Positions 14,024 to 35,552 of a stretch of DNA of 64,000 nt are shown piece by piece. Below the pieces are notes generated by a model. That model made no database searches. It saw only the letters and a program-made list of their open reading frames with translations, and was not told the DNA's origin. The translations under genes and the position numbers were made by a program. Origin of the DNA: an uncultured Planctomycetaceae bacterium (lineage in GTDB: Bacteria > Planctomycetota > Phycisphaerae > SM23-33); contig CAZHEH010000007.1 of the NCBI GenBank assembly GCA_964531695.1, forward strand, positions 34,121 to 98,120, read 5' to 3'. Position 1 is the first letter of the stretch. Each line of letters opens with the position of its first letter.

Positions 14024-14044
14024 CCCCCCAGGAAAGGACACGCG

Positions 14045-14581: not shown

Positions 14582-14751
14582 CCGACCGGGCCGTCGCGTG
14601 GGGCATGTGCGAGAGGCCCGTGCCACGCATGCGCGATTGCTCGAGCCGCAGCCATCGGATCGATGGGCCCAGGCGGGCCGAGATTCCCCGGCCGTGCCGG
14701 GAAGGACGTACCCCACACGAACACGAACCTCGAACCTTCAAGGAGCACGAC

Positions 14752-15912: not shown

Positions 15913-15985
15913 CCCGCGCGGGCCGACGGTGCGGCGGGTCGATGGCCGGCCCGCCGCGCCGCTCCCGCCCGAGGAGGACGAGCCG

Positions 15986-16639: not shown

Positions 16640-16641
16640 GC

Positions 16642-17076
16642 GTGACTTCCACCGAAACCGCCATCTGCCGGGACGCGGCCGCGGCGCTGGACGCCTCGGG
16701 CCTGTTCGCCGAGACGCACGTCGGGCTCGACGCGGCGAGCAATGCCGTGCCGCGGGCGAGCGTCGCCGTCGAGGGCCGCGAGGTCTTCCTCAGCGACGAC
16801 CGCCCCAACGGCCTGTGGGTCCGCCTGCGCCTGCGCGTGTTCGTGCGGGACCGGGCGGACAACGTCGGCGACGGCGTCGCCCGCACGGCCGACCTGTGCG
16901 CCGCGGCGGGCGCGGCCCTGCTGGCGGACCCGAAGCGCGGCGGGCTCTGCCGGGACCTGCCCGTCGGGCGGGCGACGGAGTTGGGCGCGACGGACGCGGT
17001 CACGGGCGTGCGCCGCCCGGCCGTCGAGGCCTCGCTCGCCGTCCGCTGCCACTACGAGACGGAGGACGCGCCATGA
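16642..17076 (+). CDS. Phage-like small structural protein (GTG start)
   Basis: GTG is 2 nt after the previous stop, with GGAGGG about 8 nt upstream. The protein has no internal Met and ends in an ATGA overlap with the next gene. Confidence 0.4.
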   Translation: MTSTETAICRDAAAALDASGLFAETHVGLDAASNAVPRASVAVEGREVFLSDDRPNGLWVRLRLRVFVRDRADNVGDGVARTADLCAAAGAALLADPKRGGLCRDLPVGRATELGATDAVTGVRRPAVEASLAVRCHYETEDAP

Positions 17077-17480
17077 CGCGCTACGCTCGCATCGAATCGC
17101 TCCGCTTCGGCGCGACGGCGCTGCCCCTGCCGATCTCCGTCCGAGTGACGCGCCGGGCGGGGGTCCGCGCCGCCGCCGGCGCGGGCGACCGCTACGCCTC
17201 GAGCGTCGAGTTCGACGGCTGCCGCGTGGAGGCGGAGGTCCGGCTCCGCGGCACGGCCGCCGCCGAGAACCTCGCGCCCGGCGAGGAGGGGACGCTCGCC
17301 TTCACCGTCTCGGCGATGCGCGCGGGCGCGAGCGGGCGGAGCGTCAGAATCTCGGGCGCCGTCCTCACGAGCATCGAGATCGCGTACGAGCAGACGTCCG
17401 CCGCCGTCGCGGTGCTGCGACTCACGGCCGAGTCGGACGGCGGCGCGCACGACCCGCACGCCGCGGAGGATGACGAATGA
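17073..17480 (+). CDS. Phage-like small structural protein
   Basis: MTRYARIESLRFG…. ATGA overlaps on both sides. Confidence 0.45.
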   Translation: MTRYARIESLRFGATALPLPISVRVTRRAGVRAAAGAGDRYASSVEFDGCRVEAEVRLRGTAAAENLAPGEEGTLAFTVSAMRAGASGRSVRISGAVLTSIEIAYEQTSAAVAVLRLTAESDGGAHDPHAAEDDE

Positions 17481-17839
17481 CCACGATCGACGCTCAAGCC
17501 CTGTTCGCCTCCGGCCCGCACTCGCTCCGGCCGGGAACGCCGCAGCGCCATATCGTCCGCCGCGGCCTGCCGGGGCTCGACGGAGAGCTGGCGCTCGACA
17601 TGGGCCTCCGCTCGCGCCGGCTGGTGCACACCGGGCGGCTCCAGGGCCAGACCGCCCAGGAGGTCGCCGATCAACTCGCCGCCATCGAGGCCCGCATCGA
17701 CGGCCGGACGCACCTGCTCGCCGACGACCGGGCCGGAACCTTCCCCCGAGTGCTCATCGAGTCCTGCGAGCCGACGGCCATCCGTCGCGGTCGCCGCTTC
17801 TGGTGCGACTACGAAATCGTCTATCGCCAACTGCCATGA
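17477..17839 (+). CDS. Phage-like small structural protein
   Basis: MTTIDAQALF…. ATGA overlaps on both sides. Confidence 0.45.
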   Translation: MTTIDAQALFASGPHSLRPGTPQRHIVRRGLPGLDGELALDMGLRSRRLVHTGRLQGQTAQEVADQLAAIEARIDGRTHLLADDRAGTFPRVLIESCEPTAIRRGRRFWCDYEIVYRQLP

Positions 17840-18555
17840 CGACCCTCGCCACGGACAACATCGACCGTCTCACGGCCGAGCCGACCCCGAGCGGCTGGCG
17901 CGTCCGCTTCCGCTCCGCGCACCCCGGGCTGTGCCACCAGCTCTACGTCAACGGACGACTCGCCGACTTCACAGACACGCCCGCCGGCCGGGCGTTCGAC
18001 GTGCCGGCCGGCCCCGAGCCGCGCGAGCTTTGCATCGCGGCCGTCGAGCCCGCGCGGCGCGGCGAGGACCTGTCCGGCCTGCTTCCGCCCGCGCTGCGCG
18101 AGCCCGGCTGGCTCTACACGGCCACGGTCGTGCGCGAGCCGGGCGCCCGAGCCGGCGACCTGCTGGCCGTGCGGAGCGACCGGGCCGACGCCCCGCTTCG
18201 GGTTCGCGAGTCGGCCCCGGACTGGCTGCCGCGCTGGGGCTTCGGCGCAAGCGCGTTCGGCCTGGGCGCCGCCGGCTACGGCGGCATCGGCGCGCCGGGC
18301 CTGGGCCGGGGCGGCTTCGGCGCCGGCCCGTTCGGCTTCGGGGCGGCAGTCCTCGAGCTTCGCGTGCCGCTGGCGGCGGACGGGACGCACGCGATCACCC
18401 TCCGCACGCGCTCCGCCGAGGGCCAGACGACCGACACGCCCGGCGGCGAGGTCGTCGCGCATCCGCCGCCCGCGCCCCCGGCCGCGCTGCACGCAACGGC
18501 ATACGACCCGCAGACCCACGCACTCACACTCACCCTCGAGGACCCCACGCCATGA
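17836..18555 (+). CDS. Phage-like structural protein with a Gly-rich segment
   Basis: MTTLATDNIDRL… containing GFGASAFGLGAAGYGGIGAPGLGRGGFGAGPFGFG. ATGA-coupled to its neighbours. Confidence 0.45.
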   Translation: MTTLATDNIDRLTAEPTPSGWRVRFRSAHPGLCHQLYVNGRLADFTDTPAGRAFDVPAGPEPRELCIAAVEPARRGEDLSGLLPPALREPGWLYTATVVREPGARAGDLLAVRSDRADAPLRVRESAPDWLPRWGFGASAFGLGAAGYGGIGAPGLGRGGFGAGPFGFGAAVLELRVPLAADGTHAITLRTRSAEGQTTDTPGGEVVAHPPPAPPAALHATAYDPQTHALTLTLEDPTP

Positions 18556-20135
18556 CCGAACTCTACCCCACCGACGCCGAGCTGAACGCCCTGTCGGGCA
18601 CCGTCGACCCCGAGCAGGAGGTCCTGTTCATCCCCACCGGCGAGAGCCCCTACCACACGAGCTTCTACAAGATGCTCCACCGCCTGCTCGACGTCGCGCG
18701 GCGGGCCGGCGACCTCCGCGTGTACAAGGACGGCGAGCTGACCTTCGGCGTCCGCGCCGGGCGGTTCCTCGACGGCGCCACGCCCGTGGAGTTCCCCGGC
18801 GCCGGCGAGCAGCCGCTGACCGACAACGCGACCCAGGCGATCTACCTGCTTGCCGACGGGACGCTCGCGGTCGCGACGGACGGCTTTCCCGACCCGGCCG
18901 CCGTGCCGAACATCCCGCTGGCGACGATCGACTGCGCCGACGGCGGCTACGACCACGCCGACATCACAGACTGCCGCGGGCGGGCCATGCTCTCCGCGGC
19001 CAGCGGCATGGCGGCCGCGGACGCCAACGCCCTGACCGGCGGGGGCATCGCCGGGGGCCTCCACACGCACGCCGCCGAGGGCATCGAGGACGGCGCCGTG
19101 ACGGCGGCCAAACTCGCCGCCGCGGCCAGCCAGGAAATCACGGCCAGCAATCAGACGATCCAGCACGACGGCCGGCGCCTCGTCTCGCTGACCACGCCCG
19201 ACGGAGCGACCAAGGTGCTCGGCACAACCGCGGCGGCGGTCGCCGACGGAACCGTGGACGGCCAACTGCTCACGCTCCGATGCGCGGGCGGCGAGGGGTC
19301 GCTCCGGATCGCGGACAATCCCCCCACGGCCAACGTGGACCTGGGCGGCGACTGGTATCCGTACGAGACGGACATCGACGTGTCCCTGACCCTGATGTGG
19401 GACGCCTCCGCCGGGCTGTGGCGCGAGCTGTTCCGTTCCTCGGCCGCCAACGACAACTCGGGCCTCCTGGCCGCCGCGTCGGGCGGGCGGGACCACAGCA
19501 ATACCGGCGGGTACGCCGGGAGCGCCGGCGGGCGCTTCAACGTGAACTCCCACAACTACACGGGCAGCGCCGGCGGCTTTTCCATCACCAACAGCGGCCC
19601 GCGGGCGGGTTCCGTCGGCGGCCAGGGCAACACCAACTCCGGCGCATCCTCCGGCTCGGTCGGCGGCGTGCATGCGAAATGCCGCCATGAAGCCGAGTCG
19701 CTCGCCGCGTCCTACGGCCTGGAGGCGAGCCCCGGCGATTGTCAGGTGACGAACTTCATGCTGCGGGGCGATTACACGGCCGACGCGAACGAACACACCA
19801 CGCCCGTCTGGCATGAATTGACCTCGCCCGAGCGGTGGACGCTGGAGGCCGAGACGACGGTCGGATTCACGGTGACGGTCGTGGGCCGCAAGTCGGACGG
19901 CTCGAAGGCGGCGCTGTTCAAGCGGATGGCGCTGCTGGAGCGGGATGACTCGAACAACACAACCATCGTGGGTGCGGCCCAGACCCTCGGCACGGACATC
20001 GCCGACGACGCGAACTGGGACGTGCAACTGTCGGCCGACGACACGAACGAAGCCCTGAAGATTGAGGTCCATGCCGCCGACAACGACGGCGACGTGCGAT
20101 GGACCGCCCACGTGCAGGCGCAGGTCTGCGGATAG
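18552..20135 (+). CDS. Tail-fibre / receptor-binding-like protein (Gly/Ser-rich repeats)
   Basis: 527 aa. Repeats SNTGGYAGSAGGRFNVNSHNYTGSAGGFSITNSGPRAGSVGGQGNTNSGASSGSVGG are typical of phage fibre proteins. Confidence 0.5.
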   Translation: MTELYPTDAELNALSGTVDPEQEVLFIPTGESPYHTSFYKMLHRLLDVARRAGDLRVYKDGELTFGVRAGRFLDGATPVEFPGAGEQPLTDNATQAIYLLADGTLAVATDGFPDPAAVPNIPLATIDCADGGYDHADITDCRGRAMLSAASGMAAADANALTGGGIAGGLHTHAAEGIEDGAVTAAKLAAAASQEITASNQTIQHDGRRLVSLTTPDGATKVLGTTAAAVADGTVDGQLLTLRCAGGEGSLRIADNPPTANVDLGGDWYPYETDIDVSLTLMWDASAGLWRELFRSSAANDNSGLLAAASGGRDHSNTGGYAGSAGGRFNVNSHNYTGSAGGFSITNSGPRAGSVGGQGNTNSGASSGSVGGVHAKCRHEAESLAASYGLEASPGDCQVTNFMLRGDYTADANEHTTPVWHELTSPERWTLEAETTVGFTVTVVGRKSDGSKAALFKRMALLERDDSNNTTIVGAAQTLGTDIADDANWDVQLSADDTNEALKIEVHAADNDGDVRWTAHVQAQVCG

Positions 20136-20249
20136 GGGACGGCCGAATTCGGCGCTCGACGCTCGACGCGCAACGTGCCGCGAGGCGTCGAAGGTCGGCC
20201 CGATTCCTCTGCTCGGGATCGCCGAACCGTCGCAATCGAGAACGCACCC

Positions 20250-20816
20250 ATGCCCAACACCTACAACATCTACCTCGGCATCGGCTCGGTGGAGGCCGTC
20301 GATTGGTCGCAGCCGGTGGTCGTGGCGAACGGGCCCGGCCCCGTCGAGGTTCCGCTGACGGCCGAGCCGGGCGTGCGATACGTCCTGGCGGCGCGGGCCG
20401 TGTCCGAGGCCGGCGTCGAGGAACGCAACACGCACGTGTCGGCCGTCGTCGAGGTCGATGAGGCCGGCGCGCTGCTGCCGCCCCCGCCGCCTCGGTGCGA
20501 GGACACGACGGCGCGCCTGCTGACGGACGGCGACGCGCGGGTCGAGTGGTCCTGTCGCGCCCGGCCGGGCCGGGCGGAGCCGGACGGTTTCGACGTGTTC
20601 ACCGACGACGGCACCGGGACGCTCGACCTGGCCACGCCCGCCGCCGCGCTCGATGCGGTCGGTCCGGATCAGCGCGAGTTCGCCCTACGGCTGACGCCCG
20701 CCGCGCCGCCGCTGAAGCTGGCCGTGCGCGGCCGCGCGGGCGGACGTGTCGGCCCACTGAGCCGAATCGTCACGCTGGCCGCACCGGTCCCGCCCGCGCC
20801 CGCCAACGTCCTGTGA
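20250..20816 (+). CDS. Phage-like structural protein, function unknown
   Basis: MPNTYNIYLGIGSVEAVDWSQPVV…; Pro-rich. Confidence 0.4.
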   Translation: MPNTYNIYLGIGSVEAVDWSQPVVVANGPGPVEVPLTAEPGVRYVLAARAVSEAGVEERNTHVSAVVEVDEAGALLPPPPPRCEDTTARLLTDGDARVEWSCRARPGRAEPDGFDVFTDDGTGTLDLATPAAALDAVGPDQREFALRLTPAAPPLKLAVRGRAGGRVGPLSRIVTLAAPVPPAPANVL

Positions 20817-20823
20817 GGAACCC

Positions 20824-22548
20824 ATGCAGACACTCACGCTGATGCCGACCCCGCCCGAGCCGGTCCTTCGCTGCCGCCCGCCCCGCGTCTACGCGGCCGG
20901 GCTGCGGCGGCGCGACCTGGAGGTGCTGTCGATCGAGTGGCTGCCCGCGCCCGACTTCTGCCGGGCGCGGCTGCGCGTGCATCCGCCCGGATCGCGCTCT
21001 GAGGATGCGTGCTTCGAGCGGCCGGGGGCCCTGCCGCCTGTCGGCTGCCCGATCACCATCCACCCCGGCGACGGCGACGCGGGTGTCCTGCCGGGCGTCG
21101 TGACGGCGCACGAGGCGGTCTTGGGCGAGCGGGGCGAGCAACTCATCGCACACGTTTCGCACGTGCTGGCCGAGCGCCTCGCCGCGCCGGCAGGGTGGCG
21201 CTGGCAGGTCGGGCCGGACGGCGCGCCGCTAACGGTCGCCGGCGCGCGCACGTCCTTCAACGGCGACGGCGGTTGGGCCTCGGCCGATCTGCACGAACTC
21301 AACGGCAGGCCGGCGCGCGTCTTCGCCGCCTGCCCGAACGCCCGACGCTGGACGGTCGCCGACGCGCTGGGGTACCTCCTCGCTGCGCTCGCGCCCGCGG
21401 ACGTGACCGTTCCGGGCCGCGAGGAGTTGCAGGAACGGGCCGGGGGCATCGACCTTGGCCGCGTGGACGTGAGCGGCAGGTCCGCGGCCGCGGCGATTGT
21501 CGCCGTTGCGCATCGCGGTGGGCTGGAGGTGCGAGCCGCGCGCGACGGGCTCGGCATCGTCCTCTATCGTCCTGGCCGGGACGGCCGGCGCGTCTCCGTC
21601 CGCCAACAGCCCGCCGGCGAGGCGCTCGACCGGACCCGCAGCAACCTGTGGCGCGCCCGGCTCCGCTTCCGCCGCCGCCCCGGTCGCCGGGCCGTCCTCG
21701 CGCTCGGCGGACCGAAGCTCTACGAAACGACCGTCGAACTCGCGCCCGGCTGGAACCCGTCGGACGCGACCGGTCGCTGGCGCGACCACGTCCGCTCGCT
21801 CGCCGGCGGCGGCCCCGGCTCGCGCGAGGTTCTCCGAGCATGGGTGCTCAACGAGCATGGGCGCTACGGCGCCTCGCCGTGGATGCTGCCCACGCACGAC
21901 TTCGCGGCACTCGGCGAGGACTTCTTCCTGTCCGTCCCGCGGCGCCTGCGGCCGTGTGTGTCGACCGACGCGGCCGGCCGGTCGCTCGGCATCGTCGTCG
22001 AATGGCGGCCCGAGGCGGGTGCCGGCTGGCGTCCTTGGCCCGGACCGGTGTACGTGTCCCGCGACGAGTGCAGCGTGCGGCTCGGCGGGGATGCGCTGCC
22101 GGGCGCATACTTCCGGGCGGCGCTCGCGGGCACGGCCGGGGTGCGCGTCACGGCGACGATCGCCTCCGACGCCCGCCTGTCCGTGGAGGTGCCCGGCGAC
22201 GCGAACCTTCCTCGAGAGGTGATCGATCTCGGCACTCAGGCCGGTTGGCAAACCGTTCACGAGACGAGCATCTTCCACAACGCCGCGCCCGGCGAGCCGG
22301 CGGAGCGCGACGACGCGGCCGTGCTCGGTGCGCTCGCCGAGCGGCACGCCGAATCCCTCACCGGCGCCGCCCAGGCCGAACTGACGCTCGCGTGGGTCGA
22401 TCCGACCTACGCCGTCGGCGACCTCGTCGAGCGCGTCGAGGGGCGAACGCTGGAGCTGCCCGCGGCGCCCGATCGCAGCCCGGCCGTGACGAGAGTCCGG
22501 CACGAGTTCGGCAAGACCCAGACCACCACACTCACGCTGGAGGCATGA
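20824..22548 (+). CDS. Large phage-like structural protein (574 aa), tail or baseplate candidate
   Basis: Co-oriented and ATGA-coupled to the next gene. No recognisable enzymatic motif. Confidence 0.45.
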   Translation: MQTLTLMPTPPEPVLRCRPPRVYAAGLRRRDLEVLSIEWLPAPDFCRARLRVHPPGSRSEDACFERPGALPPVGCPITIHPGDGDAGVLPGVVTAHEAVLGERGEQLIAHVSHVLAERLAAPAGWRWQVGPDGAPLTVAGARTSFNGDGGWASADLHELNGRPARVFAACPNARRWTVADALGYLLAALAPADVTVPGREELQERAGGIDLGRVDVSGRSAAAAIVAVAHRGGLEVRAARDGLGIVLYRPGRDGRRVSVRQQPAGEALDRTRSNLWRARLRFRRRPGRRAVLALGGPKLYETTVELAPGWNPSDATGRWRDHVRSLAGGGPGSREVLRAWVLNEHGRYGASPWMLPTHDFAALGEDFFLSVPRRLRPCVSTDAAGRSLGIVVEWRPEAGAGWRPWPGPVYVSRDECSVRLGGDALPGAYFRAALAGTAGVRVTATIASDARLSVEVPGDANLPREVIDLGTQAGWQTVHETSIFHNAAPGEPAERDDAAVLGALAERHAESLTGAAQAELTLAWVDPTYAVGDLVERVEGRTLELPAAPDRSPAVTRVRHEFGKTQTTTLTLEA

Positions 22549-23096
22549 CGATGGACCCCTGCCAGGGACACGACGCACTCGGCCGGCTCGTGCAGGCCGG
22601 CGGCCGCGCGGGCATGATGCTCTTCCGCCTGACCGGCCTGGAAGGCGGCAACCGCTACACGGCGCTGCCCGTCGAGTTCGACGCGGACGGCGCAACGGAG
22701 CCGGCGTCCGACGAGCCGGTGACCGTGACGAACCTGGCCGAGCCCGCCGACGCGGACGGCGCGATCCCGGCCGGGACGGAAGCCGTCGGCGTCGACGTCG
22801 AGGGACGCTGGGTCGTCTTCCTGCGCCCCGTCGCGGCGGGCGCCTTCCCGGCGCGGGTCCTCGCCTCGGCCGGCGGCGCCGCGTACACGGTGCGCGAGCA
22901 GCTCGCCACCGGGCCGGGGCAGTTCACCGACAAGCCGGGGGCCGCCGACGCGACGGCCCACAATCTGGCCGAGTTATCGCTCGGTCCGGGCGCGGCCGTG
23001 GAGGACGACACCCTCGTCCTGGTCACCGCGCTGTCCGACGGGGCCGAGACCCGTCACGTGTTCGACCATCCCGCCTACGCCAAGTACCTGGATTGA
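22545..23096 (+). CDS. Phage-like structural protein
   Basis: MTMDPCQGHDALGRLV…. ATGA overlaps on both sides. Confidence 0.45.
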   Translation: MTMDPCQGHDALGRLVQAGGRAGMMLFRLTGLEGGNRYTALPVEFDADGATEPASDEPVTVTNLAEPADADGAIPAGTEAVGVDVEGRWVVFLRPVAAGAFPARVLASAGGAAYTVREQLATGPGQFTDKPGAADATAHNLAELSLGPGAAVEDDTLVLVTALSDGAETRHVFDHPAYAKYLD

Positions 23097-24139
23097 CCAT
23101 GACCTACGCACCCGCTTGGACACAACAGAACGCATCCGGCCGCTTGGAACCCGCCGTGGATCGGGTCCGCGCGGTCAGCGCGGCCGAGCTCGCCGACGCC
23201 GTCAACCGCAGGCGGCGGCTGACCTACCGCGAGGCGCACGACTACTCGCCGCAGATCACCGCCGGGCTGCCGGTTCGCCTGACGACGCTCGCCACGGCCG
23301 AGGCGCCGCCGCTGGACAACCTACGCGATGCGCTCGCCGTCCACGTGCTCGAGCCGCCCCCGGGCGGGCTGGGCGGCGACCCGCCGACACCGGCCGCGAT
23401 GGAATGGCTGTGGCCCGAGCCGGACGGCGACGAGGGCAAGGTCATCGTCCCGGCCGGCGCGGGGGCCGGCGAGGTGGCGCTGCCGGCCAAGCTCAACGGC
23501 ACGGAGGACTGGACCGACCCGGCCCCTTCGGCGGGGACCACGCCGATCCGCGCGGTGCACTGGAACGAGCTGCGGCAGGCCGTCGAGTGGCTGCGCCGCG
23601 GTCGCTGGGTGCTGCCGGTGTATCTGACGGCCGGGGTCTTCTCCGTCCTGCCCGACACGCCGTGGACGGGCGACGCCGTCGCCAACAACGGCACGAACGA
23701 GCTGCGGGCGGTCGGCTTCGCCCTGCTTCGGACCGGCGACGACCCGCCGCGCGGGCTGACGGACGTGACGGTGCTCGACGCGACCGGGCTCGAACTCACC
23801 GCGGACCTCGACTGCAAGATCGAGGCATACCGCTGCAAGCGGCCGTTGGACTTCGTCGCCGACCCGCCCACGTGGAACGAGTACGCGCCCGCGAGCGACC
23901 TCGCCTGGCAGTCGCCGGGCGGGACCGGCCCGGACGACGCCGAGAGGATCGGCACGCTCGACCTGTCCGCGGGCGAGCCGTCCGCGCTGACCGGCCCGGC
24001 GCTGGCGTCGGCCTGCCAGGCGATGGTCGGCGGCGCCGAGCAATCGTTTCTCTTCCGCCGCGCCGACACCGGGCCCGAGACGGTCGGGCTTATCGCGTGG
24101 CTCACCGTCGCGTTCGAGTTGAACGCGCCGCCCAACTGA
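23093..24139 (+). CDS. Phage-like structural protein (348 aa)
   Basis: Last of the overlapping chain. Confidence 0.45.
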   Translation: MTMTYAPAWTQQNASGRLEPAVDRVRAVSAAELADAVNRRRRLTYREAHDYSPQITAGLPVRLTTLATAEAPPLDNLRDALAVHVLEPPPGGLGGDPPTPAAMEWLWPEPDGDEGKVIVPAGAGAGEVALPAKLNGTEDWTDPAPSAGTTPIRAVHWNELRQAVEWLRRGRWVLPVYLTAGVFSVLPDTPWTGDAVANNGTNELRAVGFALLRTGDDPPRGLTDVTVLDATGLELTADLDCKIEAYRCKRPLDFVADPPTWNEYAPASDLAWQSPGGTGPDDAERIGTLDLSAGEPSALTGPALASACQAMVGGAEQSFLFRRADTGPETVGLIAWLTVAFELNAPPN

Positions 24140-24149
24140 GGAAACCGCC

Positions 24150-24434
24150 GTGACACTGACCGCCTTCATGTCGGAATTCGCCAGCTTCGGCGCGGCCGGG
24201 CTCATGGGCGCGATGTGGCTGTGGGAGCGCCGCGCCGGGCGGCTCCGCGAGCAGCAGCTCACCGACGCCCACGAGCGCATCGGCCGCGACGAGCAGCGGC
24301 TGGAACACCTCTCGCGGGTGGTGGAAGCCAACACGACGGCGCTGACTCGCTTCTCCGAAACGCAACGGCACCTCGCCGAGACACTCAAGGACCTCGCAAG
24401 GGAGTACCGCAATGACCACGCACGCAAGACGTAG
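24150..24434 (+). CDS. Small membrane protein (one N-terminal TM helix, charged tail), holin-like candidate
   Basis: FASFGAAGLMGAMWLW TM helix followed by a highly charged C-terminus. Confidence 0.4.
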   Translation: MTLTAFMSEFASFGAAGLMGAMWLWERRAGRLREQQLTDAHERIGRDEQRLEHLSRVVEANTTALTRFSETQRHLAETLKDLAREYRNDHARKT

Positions 24435-24936
24435 GGCGCCCGCGCGGACGCCGCATCGGTTTCTTCTGGCCGCACTGTGCCTGTTTTCGCCCCTGGCCGG
24501 CTGCGAGGCGCCACCGGCGACGATAGAGCTCATCGCCGTCGCCCGGACCGGCCTGGCCGGTGCGGGCGAGGCGGAGGACCAGCGACACGAGCAGGAACAG
24601 GCCCACCTCGCCGCGCAGACGGCCGCGCTGGACGCCGCGTTCGACGCGGACGTTCGCCTCGCGGCCGCGGGCGAGCTGAGGGGCGCCGACGGCGAGCGGG
24701 TCGCGCTCGACGCCGAGTGGGTCATCTCCGCGCGCAAGGGCTACGCCGCCGCGCGCGACCTGCTGGCGGATGAGGCCCGCGCCGCCGAGCGCGAACACGC
24801 CACGCGGGCGGACAACCTGCGGGCGTCGGATGAGGCGCTGGAGATGGCCCAGGAGCTGATCGCCGAGCGGTGGGCCGTCGGGGCCCGCGTGCGGCGGACC
24901 GTGATGAACCTCTTCAGGAGCACGAACGATGAATGA
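24412..24936 (+). CDS. Lipoprotein with coiled-coil region, spanin-like candidate
   Basis: Lipobox LFSPLAGC. Ala/Glu-rich helical body. It overlaps the upstream and downstream genes. Confidence 0.4.
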   Translation: MTTHARRRAPARTPHRFLLAALCLFSPLAGCEAPPATIELIAVARTGLAGAGEAEDQRHEQEQAHLAAQTAALDAAFDADVRLAAAGELRGADGERVALDAEWVISARKGYAAARDLLADEARAAEREHATRADNLRASDEALEMAQELIAERWAVGARVRRTVMNLFRSTNDE

Positions 24937-25180
24937 CCCCGTACAGCAGGCCGTGGAACAAGCCGTCGGCCGGGCCTTCGACGCCTGGGCGGCCGAGCAC
25001 CCCTCCCTCGCGGCCGTGATCGACCGCATCGCGCTGACGGAGCGATCCGTCGCCTCCCTCCGCGAGACGGACGCCTACCGCGCGGCCGTGGCGGCCTACC
25101 ACCGCGACCGCAGCCAGGCCGAGCTCGTCAGCCGCCTGACCGACGCGGCCGCGGGCGTACTCGGGCGGCTGCTGGCGTAA
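24929..25180 (+). CDS. Small hypothetical protein (83 aa)
   Basis: ATGAATGA overlap with the preceding gene; no motifs. Confidence 0.3.
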   Translation: MNDPVQQAVEQAVGRAFDAWAAEHPSLAAVIDRIALTERSVASLRETDAYRAAVAAYHRDRSQAELVSRLTDAAAGVLGRLLA

Positions 25181-25326
25181 CCGCGCGCGCCGCCCGTCCC
25201 GATGATCCTCGGGACCGGTGCATGCGCCGTATCTGCCCCTCGCCCGGCCGTGAGGACACGCCCGTGCCGCCCGGTTTCGCGCTCCTGAGACCTAACTGGT
25301 GACATAACCCACCAAGGAGAATAGAC

Positions 25327-25539
25327 ATGCGAAGCTTCCTCGAACGCATCTCGTCGCGCAAGTTCCTGACCGCCCTGGCCGTGCAGATCGCGGCCGTGGT
25401 GGCCCTGTTCCGCCCCGCCGACGCCGAAACGCTCCACACCGCCGCCGTCCGCATCGCCGCCCTGGCGGCTCTCATCCTCGCCGCACTCGGCTACGGCAAG
25501 ATCGAGGCGGAGGTGGACAAGGCGGGAGTCAAGCGGTGA
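25327..25539 (+). CDS. Small two-TM membrane protein (70 aa), holin-like
   Basis: RBS AAGGAG precedes the ATG. Two hydrophobic helices (LTALAVQIAAVVALF and AALAALILAALGY). ATGA overlap with the next gene. Confidence 0.4.
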   Translation: MRSFLERISSRKFLTALAVQIAAVVALFRPADAETLHTAAVRIAALAALILAALGYGKIEAEVDKAGVKR

Positions 25540-26096
25540 AGAGCGTGACGGGGCTGAGAAGCCCATTGCGGTGGTCGGGAGGACAGAGCCGGGTGGCGAA
25601 GGACATAGTAAACTGTGTTCCCAAACACTCCGCCTATGTGGAACCGTGCTGCGGGGCGGCTTGGGTCTTCTGGGCTAAGCCGAAGGAGCTGTCGCGTGCG
25701 GAAGTACTCAATGATCTCGACGGCGAACTGATCAACTTCTACAGGACCTTGCACAGGCGGGGTCGCCGGCTTACTCAGGAGGTAGACTCGATTCCGTACT
25801 CACGTCGCCTCTTCCGGCAGGTCGCGCATAGTAAGCCGCGAACGGCCTTCGCCCGAGCCGTCCAGTTCGGCGATGGGGATCACGTGCGTCTCCGCGAAGT
25901 CCTTCGGCGGACGGCTGGCTGCTGGCTGCTGAGCTACAGGAATTGCGCACAGGTGCGGCGTCTGTACAAGGGCTGTCACCGCAAGCTCGTGAGCACGCGC
26001 TACACATTGGGCTGCAATTCCGCCGCCCGCGCCCGGTCCGAGGCGCGCGAACTCCTGCTGAGCAACCGCCCATTACTGCGTAGGGGGCGCGCGTAG
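25536..26096 (+). CDS. D12-class (Dam-like) N6-adenine DNA methyltransferase homologue lacking the central DPPY catalytic segment; probably inactive
   Basis: The N-terminus PLRWSGGQSRVAKDIVNCVPKHSAYVEPCCGAAWVFWAKP…VLNDLDGELINFYRTL aligns to Dam motifs X/I. The C-terminus CWLLSYRNCAQVRRLYKGCHRKLVSTRYTLGCNS…ELLLSN aligns to the Dam C-terminus. Only 186 aa remain, and the DPPY region (about 90 aa) is missing. Confidence 0.6.
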   Translation: MKSVTGLRSPLRWSGGQSRVAKDIVNCVPKHSAYVEPCCGAAWVFWAKPKELSRAEVLNDLDGELINFYRTLHRRGRRLTQEVDSIPYSRRLFRQVAHSKPRTAFARAVQFGDGDHVRLREVLRRTAGCWLLSYRNCAQVRRLYKGCHRKLVSTRYTLGCNSAARARSEARELLLSNRPLLRRGRA

Positions 26097-26170
26097 CTCG
26101 CGGCCAAGTGAATCTTTGTGGCAGGGAGGTTCCGCGCTGTACGCTGTAGCCATGTTGTGAATCCTGAAGC

Positions 26171-27706
26171 GTGGAACGTCAGAGGGGATCCTGCCGCCAC
26201 ATGCCAACACACGCACCGGACCTCGGGCTGGACGCGTCATCGTCCGCGTGGGACGTGCCGGCGGCTCACGCGCCCGTCGCGCCCGCGCATTTTCGCCCGG
26301 AGCGTATCTACCTGTGCAAGGGCGCCACGGCCACGCCGCGGCGGCGGGCGTTCGTGGAGCGGATCTGCGCGGCGCTGCCGGGCGCGGAGGTCATCGAGCG
26401 CCCGGACATTCCCCACAACCGCATCGACCTCGCGGAGCTGGACCCGCTGGCCCGCAGCCGACGCGGCAAACGGACGTTGGTTTTCGGCGAGTTGAAGACG
26501 CCCGAGCTGTCCGACGCCGAGCTGGACCGGCGGATCGACGCACTGCGCCGGGCCGACTTCACCGTGACCGTTCCGGACGCCGACGGCGAGCCGGCGGACG
26601 CGCCCGTCCGCTACGAGCTGACCCGGCACGAGTTCCCGTTCGGGACGACGATCAAGGGCAAGTGGCTCGCCACCAACGACGGCTCGTGGGTGGGGGACGA
26701 GGCGAAGGACCATCCGGGCGACGCCCGCGAGTACGAGCGGATCGCCCGCGCCTACTTCAACGCGGCCGTGTGCGGGAACGACATGAAGTGGGCGTTCATG
26801 GAAAGGGCGGACGGCGAATGGAAGGGCGAGGAGCGGGCCCTGGCCGCCTATGAGTGGTGCGCCGAACGGGGGCTCGCGCTGCGCGGGCATTGCATCTGGT
26901 GGGGCGTGCCGCGCTGGCTGCCCGACTGGCAGAAGGAGCTGGCCGAGCGACCGCGGGAGGTCATCGAGGCCCGCATGACGCGCCGCCTGCGGCACGTGCT
27001 GGAGCTGTTCGCGGGCAAGGTCCACGAGTGGGACCTGAACAACGAGATGATGCACGAGGACATCTTCGCCGAAGGGATGGGGCTGGAGAGTCAGGCCGCG
27101 TACTTCCGCTGGGCCAAGGAGGCGGCGCCGGACGTGACGTTCTACGTCAACGAGTACGGCATTCTCTCGGGCGTGGACGCCGAGCGGTACGTCGAGCACA
27201 TCCGCGGGTTGATCGCCGACGGCGCGGAGGTCGGCGGCATCGGCATGCAGGCGCACTTCTTCAGGCCGGTCCCGTCGAACGAGAAGCTCTGGTCGATTCT
27301 GGAGAAGTTCCGCCCGTTCGACCTACCGATCCGCATCACCGAGTTCGACCTGCACTACGCGGACATGACCGACGAGGAGCAGGCCGAGCAGCTCGTGCGA
27401 TTCTACAAGCTCTGCTTCGCCCATCCGTCCGTCGCGGGCATCCATATGTGGGGCTTCTGGCGGGGTGCGCATTGGCGGCCCGACGCGGCCATCTGGCGGC
27501 AGGACTGGACGCCCCGCCCCGCGGCCCGAGCGTACATGAAACTCATGAACGAAACGTGGCACACCGAAGGCAGGAGCAAGCCGGACGAGAAGGGCGAGGT
27601 CGCCTTCCGCGGCTTCCCCGGAACCTATCGCATCACGCGGGGCGAGCGCACGGCCGAGGTCGAACTGACACGCCACGAGCCGAATGCGGTCGTCCGCTTC
27701 GAGTAG
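26171..27706 (+). CDS. Glycoside hydrolase family 10-like protein with an N-terminal unknown domain
   Basis: GH10 signatures WDLNNEMMHE and ITEFDL, with the catalytic Glu positions. The start may be at 26201 (MPTHAPD, GAGGGG RBS). Confidence 0.6.
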   Translation: MERQRGSCRHMPTHAPDLGLDASSSAWDVPAAHAPVAPAHFRPERIYLCKGATATPRRRAFVERICAALPGAEVIERPDIPHNRIDLAELDPLARSRRGKRTLVFGELKTPELSDAELDRRIDALRRADFTVTVPDADGEPADAPVRYELTRHEFPFGTTIKGKWLATNDGSWVGDEAKDHPGDAREYERIARAYFNAAVCGNDMKWAFMERADGEWKGEERALAAYEWCAERGLALRGHCIWWGVPRWLPDWQKELAERPREVIEARMTRRLRHVLELFAGKVHEWDLNNEMMHEDIFAEGMGLESQAAYFRWAKEAAPDVTFYVNEYGILSGVDAERYVEHIRGLIADGAEVGGIGMQAHFFRPVPSNEKLWSILEKFRPFDLPIRITEFDLHYADMTDEEQAEQLVRFYKLCFAHPSVAGIHMWGFWRGAHWRPDAAIWRQDWTPRPAARAYMKLMNETWHTEGRSKPDEKGEVAFRGFPGTYRITRGERTAEVELTRHEPNAVVRFE

Positions 27707-28930: not shown

Positions 28931-29251
28931 CTACTCCTTGCCCGCCTGACCCGTGGCGACGGACACGGTAAGGTCGTACACCTCGCCACGCTGCGCTTCG
29001 ATGTCCACGCCGTTCAGGTCCAGGAAGGCCAAGGCCACCACGGCGCCCGCTCGCTTGTTGCCGCCAACGAACGGATGGTTCTGCACGAGGTGGTACATGT
29101 ATGCGGCCGCCTTCCGGCACAGGTCGCCATGCAGGTACTCCCCACCGAACGCCGCTTGGGACTGCGCGACTGCGGATTCCAGCAACCCCACATCGCGCAG
29201 GCCTTGCTCGCCCCCGTAGCGGTCGATCGGGTCGGCATGGAGCAGCAGCAC
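28931..29251 (-). CDS. doc: Doc (death-on-curing) toxin, Fic-fold
   Basis: HPFVGGNKR Doc/Fic motif; 106 aa. Confidence 0.8.
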   Translation of the reverse strand: MLLLHADPIDRYGGEQGLRDVGLLESAVAQSQAAFGGEYLHGDLCRKAAAYMYHLVQNHPFVGGNKRAGAVVALAFLDLNGVDIEAQRGEVYDLTVSVATGQAGKE

Positions 29252-29256
29252 GTCCG

Positions 29257-29484
29257 CTACTCCGCCAGCCGCCGAAGGTCGTCACCGAACTTCCGGTTGA
29301 TCTTGTCCAGCGAGGCCCGGAGCTGCGCCTCGCGCGCCTCGCCACGAACCGGCGATACCATCAGCGTGTCGCCGTCGGTCGTCAGCTCGAGCGGCGTATC
29401 CGCCGAGATGCGGAGCATCTCCAGAATCGGCTTGTCGATGACCAGCGCGTAGCTGTTGCCGTGCTTGGTGAGTTTCTTGACCAT
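29257..29484 (-). CDS. AbrB/MazE/SpoVT-type antitoxin (Phd-like partner of Doc)
   Basis: MVKKLTKHGNSYALVIDKPILEML swapped-hairpin motif. It lies immediately upstream of doc. Confidence 0.7.
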   Translation of the reverse strand: MVKKLTKHGNSYALVIDKPILEMLRISADTPLELTTDGDTLMVSPVRGEAREAQLRASLDKINRKFGDDLRRLAE

Positions 29485-29683
29485 GGCCGGGCTCCGATGG
29501 GTATACACACAGTATATCCCGTGTATATACATCGGGGCAAGCGGACCCGTGATTTCGGAACACCCGGAACGGCCGGCGCCATGCCCCCCGCCGGGCTCGC
29601 AGGCCGATCCTTGCGATTCCGCCCGAGCGCGATAGGATGGCCGCCGACGGGCGAATCAGGACGACGGACACAAGGGGATCCAC

Positions 29684-30925
29684 ATGCGTGGTACTTCGCG
29701 CCTATGGCTGGCGGCAGGGCTGTGGCTTGCGGCCACGGCCTGCCTGCCGTCTTGCAGCGACGAGACCACACGCCAGCGCGCGCCCGAGCCCCAGACACGG
29801 GAGACGGCGGAGACGCCCTCGGCCGCGGATACGCCAGCGCCGGCCACCAAACCGACCACGCGGCCGGGCGTGCTGGCCGAGTTCGCCTTCAACCCGGACA
29901 TCGGGCTCATACGGGTCCCGGTCGAGCTGGACGGCCGGGAGTACCCGTTTGTTCTCGACACCGGTTCGACGCACTGCGCGTTCGACGAATCGCTGCGGGA
30001 CCTGCTCGGCGAACCCGTGGATGAGTACGAGATGGCAACTCACGCGGGCTCTATCCCAATAGAGGCCTATCGCCCGCCGCCCGCCGTTCTCGGCCGCATC
30101 GACCTCGATGAACTCGAGTTCGTCGTATGCCTTGACCTGGAGATCTTCCGACACATCGGCGGCACGGACATCCGCGGCATCATCGGCATGGACGCCCTCC
30201 GCGACCGCGTGGTGCAAATCGACTTCGACGCCGGGCGCGTAACCATTCGCAAGCCGGACGAGCGGCCGCGTCCCGAGTGGGGCGAGGCAGTGCCGCTTCG
30301 CGTCGTGAAGGGCTACCCGATCGTCGAGGCCGGCATCGCGAGCGGACGGGGGCAGTTCCTGATCGACACGGGCGACACAGGCGGGGTGACCCTGAATGGA
30401 GAAGGTTTCGAGCTCGTCCGGAAGGCCACCGGCGCCGCCGTCACGACAGACCTGTATGCCACGGCGGCGGGCACGGTCCGCCGCCGCTTACTGCGTTTGA
30501 GACGCTTTCGGCTCGGTGAGTGTGAGTATCCGCCACTGGTCGTCGGCGAGTCGGATTTTTCGAGCATCGGGGCGAAGGTTCTGTCCCGGACCAACGTGGT
30601 GTTCGACTTCGCCGGCGGTGCGATGCACCTTCGCAAGCGCGATCGCTTCGACCGGCCGGGCGAAGCCGACATGAGTGGCCTGCACCTGCTCCGCATCGAC
30701 GGCGAAACGGTGGTGCACTCCGTGGACCGCGACAGCCCGGCCGAGAGAGCCGGCATCGAGGCCCAAGACGTCATCCTGACCGTCGACGGCAAGTCGCCCG
30801 ACACGTGGACGATGCAATCGCTCCGCGGCTATCTTCGCCGCGAGCACGGCCGCGTCGTGCGCATGACCCTCCGCCGCGGCGAGGAGGAGCTCAAGGCGGC
30901 CTTCCGCCTCCGCAGGCGGCTGTAG
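29684..30925 (+). CDS. Retropepsin-like (clan AA) aspartic protease lipoprotein with C-terminal PDZ domain
   Basis: Signal/lipobox …ATACLPSC. Two D(T/S)G motifs (LDTGSTHC and IDTGDTGG). PDZ-like C-terminus (LLRIDGETVVHSVDRDSPAERAGIEAQDVILTVDG). Confidence 0.6.
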   Translation: MRGTSRLWLAAGLWLAATACLPSCSDETTRQRAPEPQTRETAETPSAADTPAPATKPTTRPGVLAEFAFNPDIGLIRVPVELDGREYPFVLDTGSTHCAFDESLRDLLGEPVDEYEMATHAGSIPIEAYRPPPAVLGRIDLDELEFVVCLDLEIFRHIGGTDIRGIIGMDALRDRVVQIDFDAGRVTIRKPDERPRPEWGEAVPLRVVKGYPIVEAGIASGRGQFLIDTGDTGGVTLNGEGFELVRKATGAAVTTDLYATAAGTVRRRLLRLRRFRLGECEYPPLVVGESDFSSIGAKVLSRTNVVFDFAGGAMHLRKRDRFDRPGEADMSGLHLLRIDGETVVHSVDRDSPAERAGIEAQDVILTVDGKSPDTWTMQSLRGYLRREHGRVVRMTLRRGEEELKAAFRLRRRL

Positions 30926-32226: not shown

Positions 32227-33300
32227 GTGATGGGGAACGCGTCATCTCGGGGCTTCGCCCAAGGCCGACCGACCTGCGCGCCCCCGGCACAGCCCCTCGA
32301 GGTCCGCACGAACGGCGACGGCGAATCCGACTGGGAAAACGGCATCGTCTACTGCGGTTACCGCCAGGACCCCGAAAGCGGCGCGAACGGACAGGGCATC
32401 ATGCATGTGCGGCATCGGCCGTATCTGCCCCCGCTCGGCCGCTGGGCCAGCCGGGATCCGCTGAATCAGGATGTTGCCGGCGGCGGGTATCACGATGGGA
32501 TGGGGTTGTATACATATGTACGTTCAATCCCCATTGGTGCGACTGACCCCACGGGCAACGTCTTGGTAGTGATGGCGGGTTGGGCACAGAGCTTTGAATA
32601 TATGCAAACATTGGCAGATGCGGTTGGTGACAGCATTCTCAGCCGACTGTCCCCATATGATGCTCCTGCTGACTTGGTTCTTGGGCAACGTTTTATATCC
32701 GAGGGCCCGCTCATAGATAATGGGCACTATGACAAGCCTCCTGCCGGGTCATCGGAAAAAGAATATATCTCTTATAGCAGGAGCCGCATGAGCTATGATG
32801 ATGCGGTTCGGTATCATTATGAGCAATACGTCCAACGGAAAAGGGACGACCCGTGTAGCCTGGAACAATTTGTCGCCATCGGGCATAGCTCTGGGGCCTC
32901 TGCCATAGCAAATAATCTGGCAGCGGGGCATCTCACTGATCCTGATTTCCCGCCTGCCTTTCTTGGCCTGATCGATCCTGTCTTAGGCGAACATGACCTT
33001 CGGTCAGTCACACACGACGGATGGGGCGTCTTCGTCTGGTATCAAGAAAACCCACTGGACTTCCATGGCTCACCTGTCCAAGGTGCCGATAAGAATTGGC
33101 TTATTGAAGGCAAGAATGTTACTCCTGCCGGTGAGACTAGTCGTGAGGATGTTGGTCATATGAATATTGTTAGCGATCAGAGAGTACTCTCCGAAGTATC
33201 TCAAGGAGCCGCTGCCTATTACCATGTAAGGGTATATATCGAGTCCAAGAAAGCACCGGGCAAGGTACCTTATGATACGCCGGAGGAGGGAAGATGGTGA
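32227..33300 (+). CDS. Orphan Rhs C-terminal module: last Rhs repeat plus the DPxG boundary, fused to an alpha/beta-hydrolase (lipase/phospholipase-type, GHSxG) toxin domain
   Basis: VYCGYRQDPESG…RHRPYLPPLGRWASRDPL…GGYHDGMGLYTYVRSIPIGATDPTGN is the Rhs core end. It is followed by a domain with the GHSSGAS nucleophile motif and downstream Asp/His residues. Local GC drops. Confidence 0.7.
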   Translation: MMGNASSRGFAQGRPTCAPPAQPLEVRTNGDGESDWENGIVYCGYRQDPESGANGQGIMHVRHRPYLPPLGRWASRDPLNQDVAGGGYHDGMGLYTYVRSIPIGATDPTGNVLVVMAGWAQSFEYMQTLADAVGDSILSRLSPYDAPADLVLGQRFISEGPLIDNGHYDKPPAGSSEKEYISYSRSRMSYDDAVRYHYEQYVQRKRDDPCSLEQFVAIGHSSGASAIANNLAAGHLTDPDFPPAFLGLIDPVLGEHDLRSVTHDGWGVFVWYQENPLDFHGSPVQGADKNWLIEGKNVTPAGETSREDVGHMNIVSDQRVLSEVSQGAAAYYHVRVYIESKKAPGKVPYDTPEEGRW

Positions 33301-33812
33301 TGAAATTGACGATGACGTGTTCTATTGTGTTTATTGTGGCGACCATGCTGATTGGGTGCGACACGGGGCATGTTGAGCCATGCGAGAGATGCTCATCTCC
33401 GCAGGCGTTAATGTCGGCGTTGTATCACAAATTTGAGTCAGAGGAGTATCCTGATCTTGAGTCCCTGATTCATCCCCGACTACGTGGGCAGTGGAAGGAG
33501 TTTGTCTATTGGGACGGCCGAATTAGGCGCGAATTCCCGAAGGCTCTCGGCACAGAATACACAAGTCCGATAGATAACCTTCGAGAAGAAGTATGCCATG
33601 GGAAGGGGCAGTGGAAGATCGAAGCACAGAGGGATCTGGCGCGTGTGAGGATCGGAGAGTCAGGCACTTCACTGGTTCTCAGAAGACATTACGGGCAATG
33701 GTACATCGTGCTATATGAAACCTGGGAAGTCGCTGAGTATATGTCGCGATTGAGGAAGGAAATCTCGAAGGTAGAGTATCACAGACTAAGCGATATGAAT
33801 CGCAGGGACTAA
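33294..33812 (+). CDS. Lipoprotein, candidate immunity protein for the Rhs lipase toxin
   Basis: MKLTMTCSIVFIVATMLIGC lipobox. It overlaps the toxin gene's 3' end and has low GC like the toxin. Confidence 0.45.
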   Translation: MVMKLTMTCSIVFIVATMLIGCDTGHVEPCERCSSPQALMSALYHKFESEEYPDLESLIHPRLRGQWKEFVYWDGRIRREFPKALGTEYTSPIDNLREEVCHGKGQWKIEAQRDLARVRIGESGTSLVLRRHYGQWYIVLYETWEVAEYMSRLRKEISKVEYHRLSDMNRRD

Positions 33813-33816
33813 CAAC

Positions 33817-33837
33817 GTGTCCAGTCCGTAGGGACAC
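33817..33837. terminator. Hairpin GTGTCC-N9-GGACAC directly after the immunity gene stop (terminator-like, no clear U-tract)
   Basis: Read from the sequence. It shares the GGGACAC core with the inverted repeats at 34022 and 34299. Confidence 0.3.
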
Positions 33838-34021
33838 ATAGTTAGCCCGCATTATTCGTGAAGCTGCGCGAAACGCACGATTGTGACGGGTTTTGGCATG
33901 CCGTCGAGGCGAGAGGGGTGGCTGAGGCGCGGCGAGGCGGCGGAAGGGAGCAATCGGCGGCGCTGAGAGGCCAACATCCGCCCCGACCCGTGGCGGAATC
34001 TTGGGAATCTTGGAATCTCGC

Positions 34022-34317
34022 TTGGGACACCATACGGTTTTTTGCTTGCGTGGAGATGTAATAGCGGTAGGATGTTTTGCATGCCGAGACTCGCACGAGC
34101 AGTGATTCCGGGCCGGCCCCACCACGTCACGCAGCGCGGCAACCGTCGCCAGCAGACGTTTTTCGGCGAGGACGACTATCGCGCGTACCTGTCGCTGCTG
34201 GGCCGGTGGTGCGCGGCGCACGAACTGCGGGTATGGGAAGCTGCTGGGCCGCCCCCTCCTGCCCGGCCGACCCGGTCGGCCTCGTACGCGAGAGAAACAA
34301 ACCGTATGGTGTCCCAG
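34022..34317. mobile_element. Degenerate REPtron-like element: 19-bp perfect inverted repeats TTGGGACACCATACGGTTT (34022-34040) and AAACCGTATGGTGTCCCAG (34299-34317) flanking a truncated RAYT/IS200-like transposase fragment
   Basis: The inverted repeats were read from the sequence. The enclosed ORF begins MPRLARAVIPGRPHHVTQRGNRRQQTFFGEDDYRAYLSLL, the conserved N-terminus of REP-associated tyrosine transposases, but it lacks the HuH and catalytic Tyr regions. A GGAATCTTG x3 tandem repeat lies just upstream (33997-34020). Confidence 0.5.
34081..34260 (+). pseudogene. Truncated REP-associated tyrosine transposase (IS200/IS605-like TnpA) N-terminal fragment
   Basis: Only about 50 aa of homology. 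The downstream track ORF continuation is unrelated sequence. Confidence 0.5.
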
Positions 34318-34514
34318 GATAACAGGATAACCATGAAGGAAGAGATCACATGTGACGCGGCTGGGAACTTGCAAGTGCCACCCGAGGCCGTATCGTGTAC
34401 CGGGAAGAAGTGTTCTGGGGATGCGACGTCCTCGCCGAAGGAGTAGTTATGATTATCAGCTATGCCTGTGTGGCAGTTTGTGACAGACCATCAATGGATG
34501 TGCCTCGTACAAGA

Positions 34515-35231
34515 ATGCGCCGGCACGGTCTCGCAATGCCCGCAGGACCGCTCCAACTTCGCCTGGTTCTGCTGATTGGGGCGGCTCTCTGTCTTGGCTT
34601 GCACGGCTGCTCGGACACGCGAGATGGTAGCCGCCGCGCTGGAGGTACAGAGCCGAAGAGGCCTGCTTCTGCCCAAGAACAGGCGGTTGCGGAAACGCCG
34701 ATGTTAACCGGCCTAGAGATTTGGGAACCGGAGGGCGCGAGTGTCGAAGGGCGGCCATCGCAATCAGGCCAGCTCACTGTGGCGCAGCTTGCCCAGGAAA
34801 CGCTGCTTGACCTGAGCGATGATGGGGCCTCAGTCGTGGCCAATCCCAAAATATCATTCAGCGTTACGAAGAAATCGGCCGAACAAAGGGTGTGGCTGGA
34901 GATCGTCATGCGTGTTCCGACTGGGGAGCCATTTTCGGATGATAAGGTGTATTGGCTTGCCTCTCGGAATATTGGCAAGGTGTACTTGGCAGGTGGGTCA
35001 CGCGGCCCGAGCGGACTCCCTTACCGTGTTGAGGAAACGATCAGAATACACACAAAGCTTGGCCGCGCTGGTACGGATGTGAAGCGCTTCACGGAAGCCA
35101 ACGGCGTCATTTGCGGATCATTGTACGGACGGTCAATGAAGCCGAATGGGCATGGGGCCTGCCTGTTGGCAAGCTTCACCATCCCAATCGCCGCACCGGA
35201 CCGCACGTGGGGGAACAATGTGGTCGAGTAG
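34515..35231 (+). CDS. Secreted / lipoprotein-like hypothetical protein (low-GC island)
   Basis: MRRHGLAMPAGPLQLRLVLLIGAALCLGLHGC signal region; start uncertain among 34395/34515/34533. Confidence 0.4.
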   Translation: MRRHGLAMPAGPLQLRLVLLIGAALCLGLHGCSDTRDGSRRAGGTEPKRPASAQEQAVAETPMLTGLEIWEPEGASVEGRPSQSGQLTVAQLAQETLLDLSDDGASVVANPKISFSVTKKSAEQRVWLEIVMRVPTGEPFSDDKVYWLASRNIGKVYLAGGSRGPSGLPYRVEETIRIHTKLGRAGTDVKRFTEANGVICGSLYGRSMKPNGHGACLLASFTIPIAAPDRTWGNNVVE

Positions 35232-35552
35232 CGCGTGCAGGCATCGGGGGGAAAGGGGACCGGCAGCGGCCGGAGGCGCCGCCGGAGTGTCGTCTCCGAA
35301 ATAGGGCCCTTCTTCAATCTTGTTGGTGGACTGAATGCTTGAAACAACGCTCAACCTCTGCTTGTTCAATGGGTTGTCACGCCTCATCGATCGGCAGGAG
35401 GTTGAGCCAGGTATGTGCACGGCATTCGTGCGTTGTTTCACTGTGAAGGGCACGTCGTCCGGAAGATTACGATGAACAGCGACATTGTCCAGCGAAGCGC
35501 GACGCAGTCATTGAATGGCATCGCCTGAGGGCGCTCCCGTCTTGCGGGGCGG

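Follow-up and report, generated by a model that had tools for sequence, protein, structure and literature searches.

The closest described relatives of the gene analyzed here are E. coli Dam, T4 Dam and DpnM (PDB 2g1p, 4rtl and 2dpm), α-group N6-adenine DNA methyltransferases of about 260–280 aa. In the structures of the E. coli and T4 enzymes, a hairpin in the target-recognition region makes the base-specific contacts with GATC, and the strand that precedes motif IV (DPPY) is central to the Rossmann-type sheet of class I methyltransferases. The same family is represented among phages and prophages by orphan Dam-like methyltransferases (phrog_56), such as cje0220 of a Mu-like prophage of Campylobacter and the homologues found in cyanophages. 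Two other kinds of known system are relevant to a family member without a catalytic motif: the pseudogenes that deletions between short direct repeats leave in cryptic prophages, and proteins such as DNMT3L and METTL14, which have lost catalytic competence, kept their methyltransferase homology and acquired roles. The latter retain a complete, stably folded methyltransferase domain that is under purifying selection.

The locus described here lies in a window of 64,000 nucleotides (the whole stretch of DNA that was analyzed) from the metagenome-assembled genome of an uncultured Phycisphaerae bacterium. An ORF of 186 aa with a GTG start, at 25536–26096 on the forward strand, is homologous in both of its retained halves to the Dam enzymes and is judged to be a pseudogene, very probably what is left of an orphan Dam-type methyltransferase gene, carried by a phage and inactivated recently, that closed the late operon of what is now a prophage remnant. 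Compared with the Dam enzymes, it keeps motifs X, I and II, the first target-recognition helices and the last three C-terminal strands, whereas motif IV, two strands of the core and the β-hairpin of the recognition domain are absent; in addition, the lysine of the GGK motif is replaced by Gln. The phage orphan methyltransferases share its family and its lifestyle, but all phage homologues fall below 60% identity, and this copy is internally deleted and sits in a prophage remnant. With the pseudogenes of cryptic prophages it shares a 12-bp repeat junction, an intact allele in a close relative, relaxed evolution, a frameshift and nearby deletions; nothing material separates it from them, a mild oddity being that both local deletions are in frame. 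Unlike DNMT3L and METTL14, the remnant misses one third of the fold and displays no detectable constraint. It is a case of ordinary gene loss and decay in a prophage remnant.

The family assignment rests on several profiles. PF02086 (MethyltransfD12) matches the 186-aa ORF with an E-value of 6.6e-10 and 39.6 bits (cut-off 22), in a best stretch that aligns residues 13–85 with profile positions 1–75 of 253 and a second, short stretch at the C-terminus. The TIGR00571 (dam) profile also matches (8e-15), its 55 bits lying under the family cut-off of 114.85. Among phage families, phrog_56 (DNA methyltransferase) matches residues 1–111 (1.2e-35) and phrog_1996 residues 111–177, and the MTase_II and orphan-MTase profiles of PADLOC match mainly at residues 7–111. 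The retained N-terminal part (25536–25856, forward strand), defined by the family alignment and by PF02086 positions 1–75, comprises motifs X, I and II together with the helices that open the target-recognition domain, and it aligns, through a full-length relative (P0002, see below), with residues 5–111 of E. coli Dam (2g1p). The retained C-terminal part (25869–26096, forward strand) corresponds to P0002 residues 180–270, to phrog_1996 and, in the structural models, to the helix and three β-strands that follow motif IV (LLSYRN...ELLLSN).

Motif X of the remnant reads PLRWSGGQ, with Gln in place of a lysine that is found in 98% of relatives, and motif II (EVLNDLDGE) is intact. The first-pass annotation had singled out EPCCGAAW as the motif I of this gene; the variant is present, but it is a trait of the whole sub-clade, shared with the full-length members P0003 and P0005–P0008, rather than a peculiarity of the remnant. 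The central proposal of the same annotation, that this is a Dam-like D12 homologue of 186 aa without the DPPY region, is borne out both by the PF02086 alignment that it had recommended, whose best stretch is confined to the first 75 profile positions, and by a clean gap of 84 residues against P0002 that spans motif IV. In the closest full-length relative, the missing motif reads SPPY and not DPPY. A catalytic motif displaced into a shifted register had been named as the finding that would overturn this reading, and it does not exist: no [DNS]PP[YFWH] motif occurs in the remnant's own frame or in any other frame across the ORF.

The remnant is the last gene of a same-strand run with the character of a phage late-gene module (12296–25539, forward strand), which extends from the portal gene to lysis-like ORFs and which the methyltransferase remnant terminates, as previously proposed; two full-length relatives (P0003 and P0008) likewise stand last in comparable runs of same-strand genes. 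The module includes a portal gene (12296–14023, forward; phrog_104, 5e-21; PF05133), an SU10-type major capsid protein (within 14020–15912, forward; PF17236, SU10_MCP, 2.7e-83), a weakly matching Rz-like ORF (24150–24434, forward), an ORF with a lipoprotein-type N-terminus (24412–24936, forward) and about ten ORFs without family matches. Immediately upstream of the remnant, a 70-aa ORF (25327–25539, forward), whose only profile match is a weak one to a PHROG of unknown function, contains two hydrophobic segments by hydropathy (at about residues 12–28 and 36–55), in agreement with the two-TM holin-like ORF described in the first-pass annotation. The overlap between the two genes had been read as ATGA; the sequence is GTGA, the GTG start of the remnant (25536–25538) overlapping the TGA stop of the 70-aa ORF (25537–25539). 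Since most ORFs of the tail and lysis regions have no assignment in PHROGs or Pfam, the labels holin and spanin rest on size, hydropathy and the weak Rz-like match.

No restriction endonuclease gene is adjacent to the remnant, which identifies it as an orphan phage methyltransferase, and the element looks like a prophage remnant, given that genes for a terminase, an integrase or replication were not seen with the phage module. Its structural genes still evolve at dN/dS 0.15–0.28 against the sister strain; the element may be either a cryptic prophage remnant or a domesticated one. To its left, the module borders on host genes: a Fic gene (10901–12058, reverse strand) adjoins the portal gene, and YmdB and DUF6263 proteins, a σ54 activator and an ECF sigma factor are encoded on the same side. 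Among named sequences, the YmdB protein has its best relatives, 78–79% identical, in MAGs of Phycisphaerae and Planctomycetota. No tRNA genes were found in the window, and a scan of 24900–26400 for promoters and terminators returned no promoter-like site and one terminator-like site, the chance level. The remnant differs from its neighbors in composition, with a GC content of 0.635 and a GC3 of 0.754 against GC3 values of 0.88–0.94. Positions 25550–26000 have a GC content of 0.60–0.66, against 0.70–0.77 in the surrounding phage and host genes, and the segment deleted from the remnant is lower still in an intact allele (0.57 in contig L001). Its low GC and GC3 suggest that the phage picked up the methyltransferase gene at a later time.

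A search of the protein collection recovered an identical 186-aa protein (P0001) and a 270-aa protein, P0002, which is 93% identical to the remnant over residues 1–111 and 87% identical over its C-terminal 91 residues (P0002 180–270). The other 49 protein matches are 247–311 aa long, with the exception of a 132-aa match (P0009). P0002 is encoded on four metagenome contigs, L001–L004 (at 2377–3189 in L001), at the same locus and with the same neighboring genes as in the window, to which these contigs are 95.7–97.5% identical at the nucleotide level. An intact orthologue between the same flanking genes is what a pseudogene in the window would be expected to have, and the orthologue comparison that the first-pass annotation had recommended thus yielded both this full-length allele and, in three further contigs (L005, L086 and L087), the recurrence of the deletion.

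More distant relatives are widespread. Matches below 60% identity were found in 610 phage records, 434 of them covering at least 80% of the full-length query, and a scan of genome contigs with the family alignment returned at least 80 loci; none of the matches listed exceeds 40% identity, and neither the window's own genome nor a close relative is among them. Scans with P0002 recovered only the L087 contig, again, from metagenome contigs and gave no match among viral contigs. In the conservation alignment, built from 50 full-length family members including P0002, the latter departs from its family at several positions: it has Ser at the Asp of DPPY, a residue that is Asp in all 49 other aligned members; Gln at the 98% conserved Lys of GGK, a change that the window shares; Lys at Arg110, which is 94% conserved among aligned members; and Cys at the Phe of motif I, a change common to its sub-clade. 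N4-cytosine methyltransferases usually have SPPY as their motif IV (PMC10406627). The presence of SPPY and GGQ in P0002 suggests that the gene's function may already have been altered or lost when the deletion occurred, and the intact P0002 allele could itself be inactive, weakened or altered in specificity.

At this gene, the window is exactly 252 bp (84 codons) shorter than the intact allele. The BLAST segments that align the window with L001–L004 overlap by 12 bp, and the alignment breaks at window positions 25868/25857. Base-by-base reading places the deletion junction in this overlap (25857–25868, forward strand), which holds the sole surviving copy of a repeat, GCCGTCCAGTTC, encoding AVQF. 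In the intact allele, GCCGTCAAGTTC (AVKF) stands to the left of the 252-bp block and GCCGTCCAGTTC (AVQF) to its right, so that the window keeps the right-hand variant. These flanking direct repeats, GCCGTC(A/C)AGTTC, are 12 bp long and identical at 11 of 12 positions, and at their 252-bp spacing they form the top-ranked direct-repeat family in the intact gene (L001:2377–3189). Since 252 is a multiple of three, the reading frame stays open. A single deletion between the imperfect repeats thus removed the 84 codons, probably through replication slippage or microhomology-mediated recombination.

The same junction is found in four assemblies representing three or four read sets: the window itself (NCBI); L005 (Logan, SRR7048227), which matches the window at 99.88% identity across 16.3 kb; L086 (ENA ERZ27257107), which encodes P0053; and L087 (JGI 3300027962), which encodes P0054. 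Point substitutions distinguish these assemblies, which are hence not copies of one error. The deletion is real, and the possibility, noted in the first-pass annotation, of a fragment produced by a sequencing indel is excluded by the recurrence of the junction. Two other accounts of the length difference were considered and rejected. An ancestral short form, with the long form as an insertion, is incompatible with the full alignment of the extra 84 residues to conserved family columns, including motif IV, and programmed or phase-variable switching is incompatible with the irreversibility of a deletion at a 12-bp repeat and with the location of the two alleles on diverged backgrounds.

The elements removed by the deletion can be read from the AlphaFold model of P0002 (mean pLDDT 83.8, pTM 0.84) and from its alignment with E. 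coli Dam. In the model, the deleted block contains the terminal portion of the third target-recognition helix, a β-hairpin at about residues 118–128 and the helices at 143–154 and 164–171, and motif IV (SPPY, residues 181–184) also falls within it. Of the seven strands of the modeled sheet (33–36, 55–59, 157–160, 176–180, 213–219, 232–240 and 252–260), two (157–160 and 176–180) are deleted, leaving the remnant without a complete seven-stranded Rossmann-type sheet; of the target-recognition domain only the first helices remain, the β-hairpin being gone. In a sequence search of the PDB, P0002 residues 8–186 align with residues 5–186 of E. coli Dam, placing 'FARAVKFWYVNRCGFGG' on 'FRRAVLFLYLNRYGYNG', SPPY on DPPY and the hairpin at 118–128 on the 'LNRYGYNG...' region of the E. 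coli enzyme, and the deleted block corresponds to residues ~112–186 of the latter, DPPY included. Judging from these models, the remnant has lost its catalytic loop together with the element that reads DNA and a portion of the core, and the lesion thus takes elements (motif IV, the hairpin and two core strands) that are indispensable for D12 activity, as expected of a pseudogene. The AlphaFold model of the 186-aa remnant itself has a mean pLDDT of 76, with values of 52–66 over residues 61–111, and borrows from the parental alignment, so that it is no test of stability and speaks neither for nor against function. Foldseek matches this model best to E. coli Dam chains (E-value 1.2e-4, TMq 0.62), with a TMt of 0.47 that reflects the one third of the Dam fold left without a counterpart. 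The product of the remnant would be unable to methylate DNA and almost certainly would neither fold like Dam nor bind DNA as Dam does. Translation of the remnant may continue by way of its GTGA overlap with the holin-like ORF upstream.

The history of the gene after the deletion was followed in the deletion-bearing clade (window/L005, L086 and L087), with substitutions polarized using L001 as the reference. Seven substitutions separate the members of this clade within the ORF, and all are nonsynonymous, with 0 synonymous changes: V35M in L087, R70S in L086, R78P, R90S and R184P in L086 and L087, and A80T and R184G in the window and L005. Two of the replaced residues are strongly conserved among the 49 full-length relatives (R70 in 92% and R90 in 96%). 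With Nei-Gojobori site counts of S = 142.5 and N = 415.5, the probability of seven nonsynonymous changes out of seven is ~0.13 at neutrality and ~0.002 at ω = 0.25, a value typical of the neighboring phage genes; the observation is compatible with neutrality, and counts this small leave room by themselves for weak or diversifying selection. Furthermore, L087 has lost the 7-bp unit of a tandem repeat (GCTGGCT, ~2.5 copies; 25914–25920, forward strand) and is consequently frameshifted, its product (P0054) ending at ...RRTAGC. Of the three lineages with the deletion, two (window/L005 and L086) keep an open frame. Against the intact allele, dN/dS is 0.78 in the N-terminal part and 0.37 in the C-terminal part, compared with 0.15–0.28 in the adjacent phage structural genes and 0 in the holin-like ORF and a 94-aa ORF when the sister strain is used for comparison; the holin-like ORF has no substitutions at all against L087 and a dN of 0 against L002. 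Within the limits of these small counts, every indicator points to relaxed constraint and to a remnant without detectable purifying selection, that is, to a sequence that has drifted freely since the deletion. Less certainly, selection on the gene may have been relaxed or altered already before the deletion, as the SPPY and GGQ of the sister allele would suggest.

The stretch downstream of the remnant has also lost DNA. At 400 bp from it, the window lacks a further 1188 bp with respect to L001–L003, again in frame, and the result is a fusion ORF (26171–27706, forward strand; junction at 26497–26504) in which the first ~100 codons of a gene resembling spore photoproduct lyase (PF20903) run into a GH10 gene. 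This deletion takes most of the lyase-like radical-SAM gene, including its Cys motif, the intergenic region and the GH10 signal peptide, and only about 4–8 bp of microhomology are found at its junction. L087 carries the 252-bp deletion and not the 1188-bp one, so that the deletion in the methyltransferase came earlier and the second took place in the window's own lineage, where a nearby lesion that destroys two further genes indicates that the stretch is eroding. Both local deletions (252 and 1188 bp) being in frame has a chance probability of about 1 in 9.

Other features lie further downstream. On the reverse strand of the window, at 28931–29532, a 106-aa Fic-domain gene, smaller than the Fic gene beside the portal gene, follows an ORF of 75–91 aa with a weak MazE-antitoxin match (as called in L005), and from their sequences these look like a toxin-antitoxin pair downstream of the eroding region. 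A 413-aa Asp-protease/PDZ gene (29684–30925) is present in the window and in L005, and most of it (about 1.26 kb, 29597–30860) is missing from L001, a further strain-level indel within the same 10 kb. Beyond it, a low-GC island (32300–35450; 0.50–0.61 against ~0.70) begins where synteny with L001 stops (~32308). Its ORFs at 32227–33300, 33294–33812 and 34395–35231 have no Pfam or PADLOC matches, and L001 has different genes at the island position, including a weak T5orf172 match.

One competing view is that the truncated protein is a functional derivative, catalytically dead, which binds SAM or DNA and works as a decoy, a regulator or an anti-restriction factor. The first-pass annotation had offered a dead DNA-binding regulator or anti-restriction factor alongside a recent pseudogene, and the two proposals fare very differently. 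An in-frame deletion, an ORF that remains open in the window/L005 and L086, the GTGA coupling to the holin-like ORF and the preservation of the SAM-binding half (motifs X, I and II) would all suit a functional protein. Open frames, however, easily survive by chance in DNA of 63–70% GC at ~1% divergence, and the retained half comes without the DNA-reading hairpin and the central β-strand with motif IV. Furthermore, the changes that followed the deletion replaced the conserved R70 and R90, were nonsynonymous in all seven cases and were accompanied by the frameshift of L087, and no comparably short family member was seen among the relatives listed, the 132-aa P0009 aside. With two core strands lost and no signal of purifying selection, a functional derivative appears improbable. 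Even less credence can be given to the more specific proposal that the 186-aa product is still made late in prophage induction and serves a new non-catalytic role, for instance as a decoy that binds SAM or interacts with methyltransferases, or to the related suggestion that the SPPY sister represents a Dam fold switched to N4-cytosine methylation; were the latter true, the methyltransferase of this lineage would have been unusual even before the deletion. The reading as a recent pseudogene is upheld by the intact allele at ~96–97% identity, the 12-bp repeat junction, the all-nonsynonymous changes and the frameshift in one relative.

A different question is whether the loss of the methyltransferase was itself selected, as an adaptive knockout that avoids Type IV restriction or the regulatory cost of methylation. 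The occurrence of the deletion allele in three or four data sets, its persistence through ~0.75–1% divergence and the foreign composition of the gene (GC3 0.75 against ~0.9) would fit such a process, but the SPPY and GGQ of the intact sister, at positions that are 98–100% conserved, are in keeping with an earlier loss of constraint, the neighboring and unrelated 1188-bp deletion suggests general erosion, and on present data selected loss is indistinguishable from drift, which makes it an unlikely explanation. It is barely conceivable that the deletion arose in assembly or sequencing and that the true genome holds a full-length gene. All the sequences are metagenome assemblies, in which collapses at short repeats occur, but the identical junction was reached by different pipelines in assemblies that differ by point substitutions, and an imperfect 12-bp repeat is far below assembler k-mer length. 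A recently inactivated phage methyltransferase remains the preferred reading.

This reading has a practical consequence for the annotation of the family. Automatic pipelines would call the ORF a DNA adenine methylase, given that it passes the Pfam threshold, and since it lacks the catalytic motif it should be flagged as a pseudogene or remnant and not as a functional DNA adenine methylase. Without such a flag, methylome or restriction-modification predictions for this Phycisphaerae MAG go wrong. The locus also constitutes a tidy and datable case of prophage-remnant erosion, in which related contigs preserve the sequence of events: after a microhomology deletion came point changes at conserved residues and, in one lineage, a frameshift, and another lineage underwent a second deletion.
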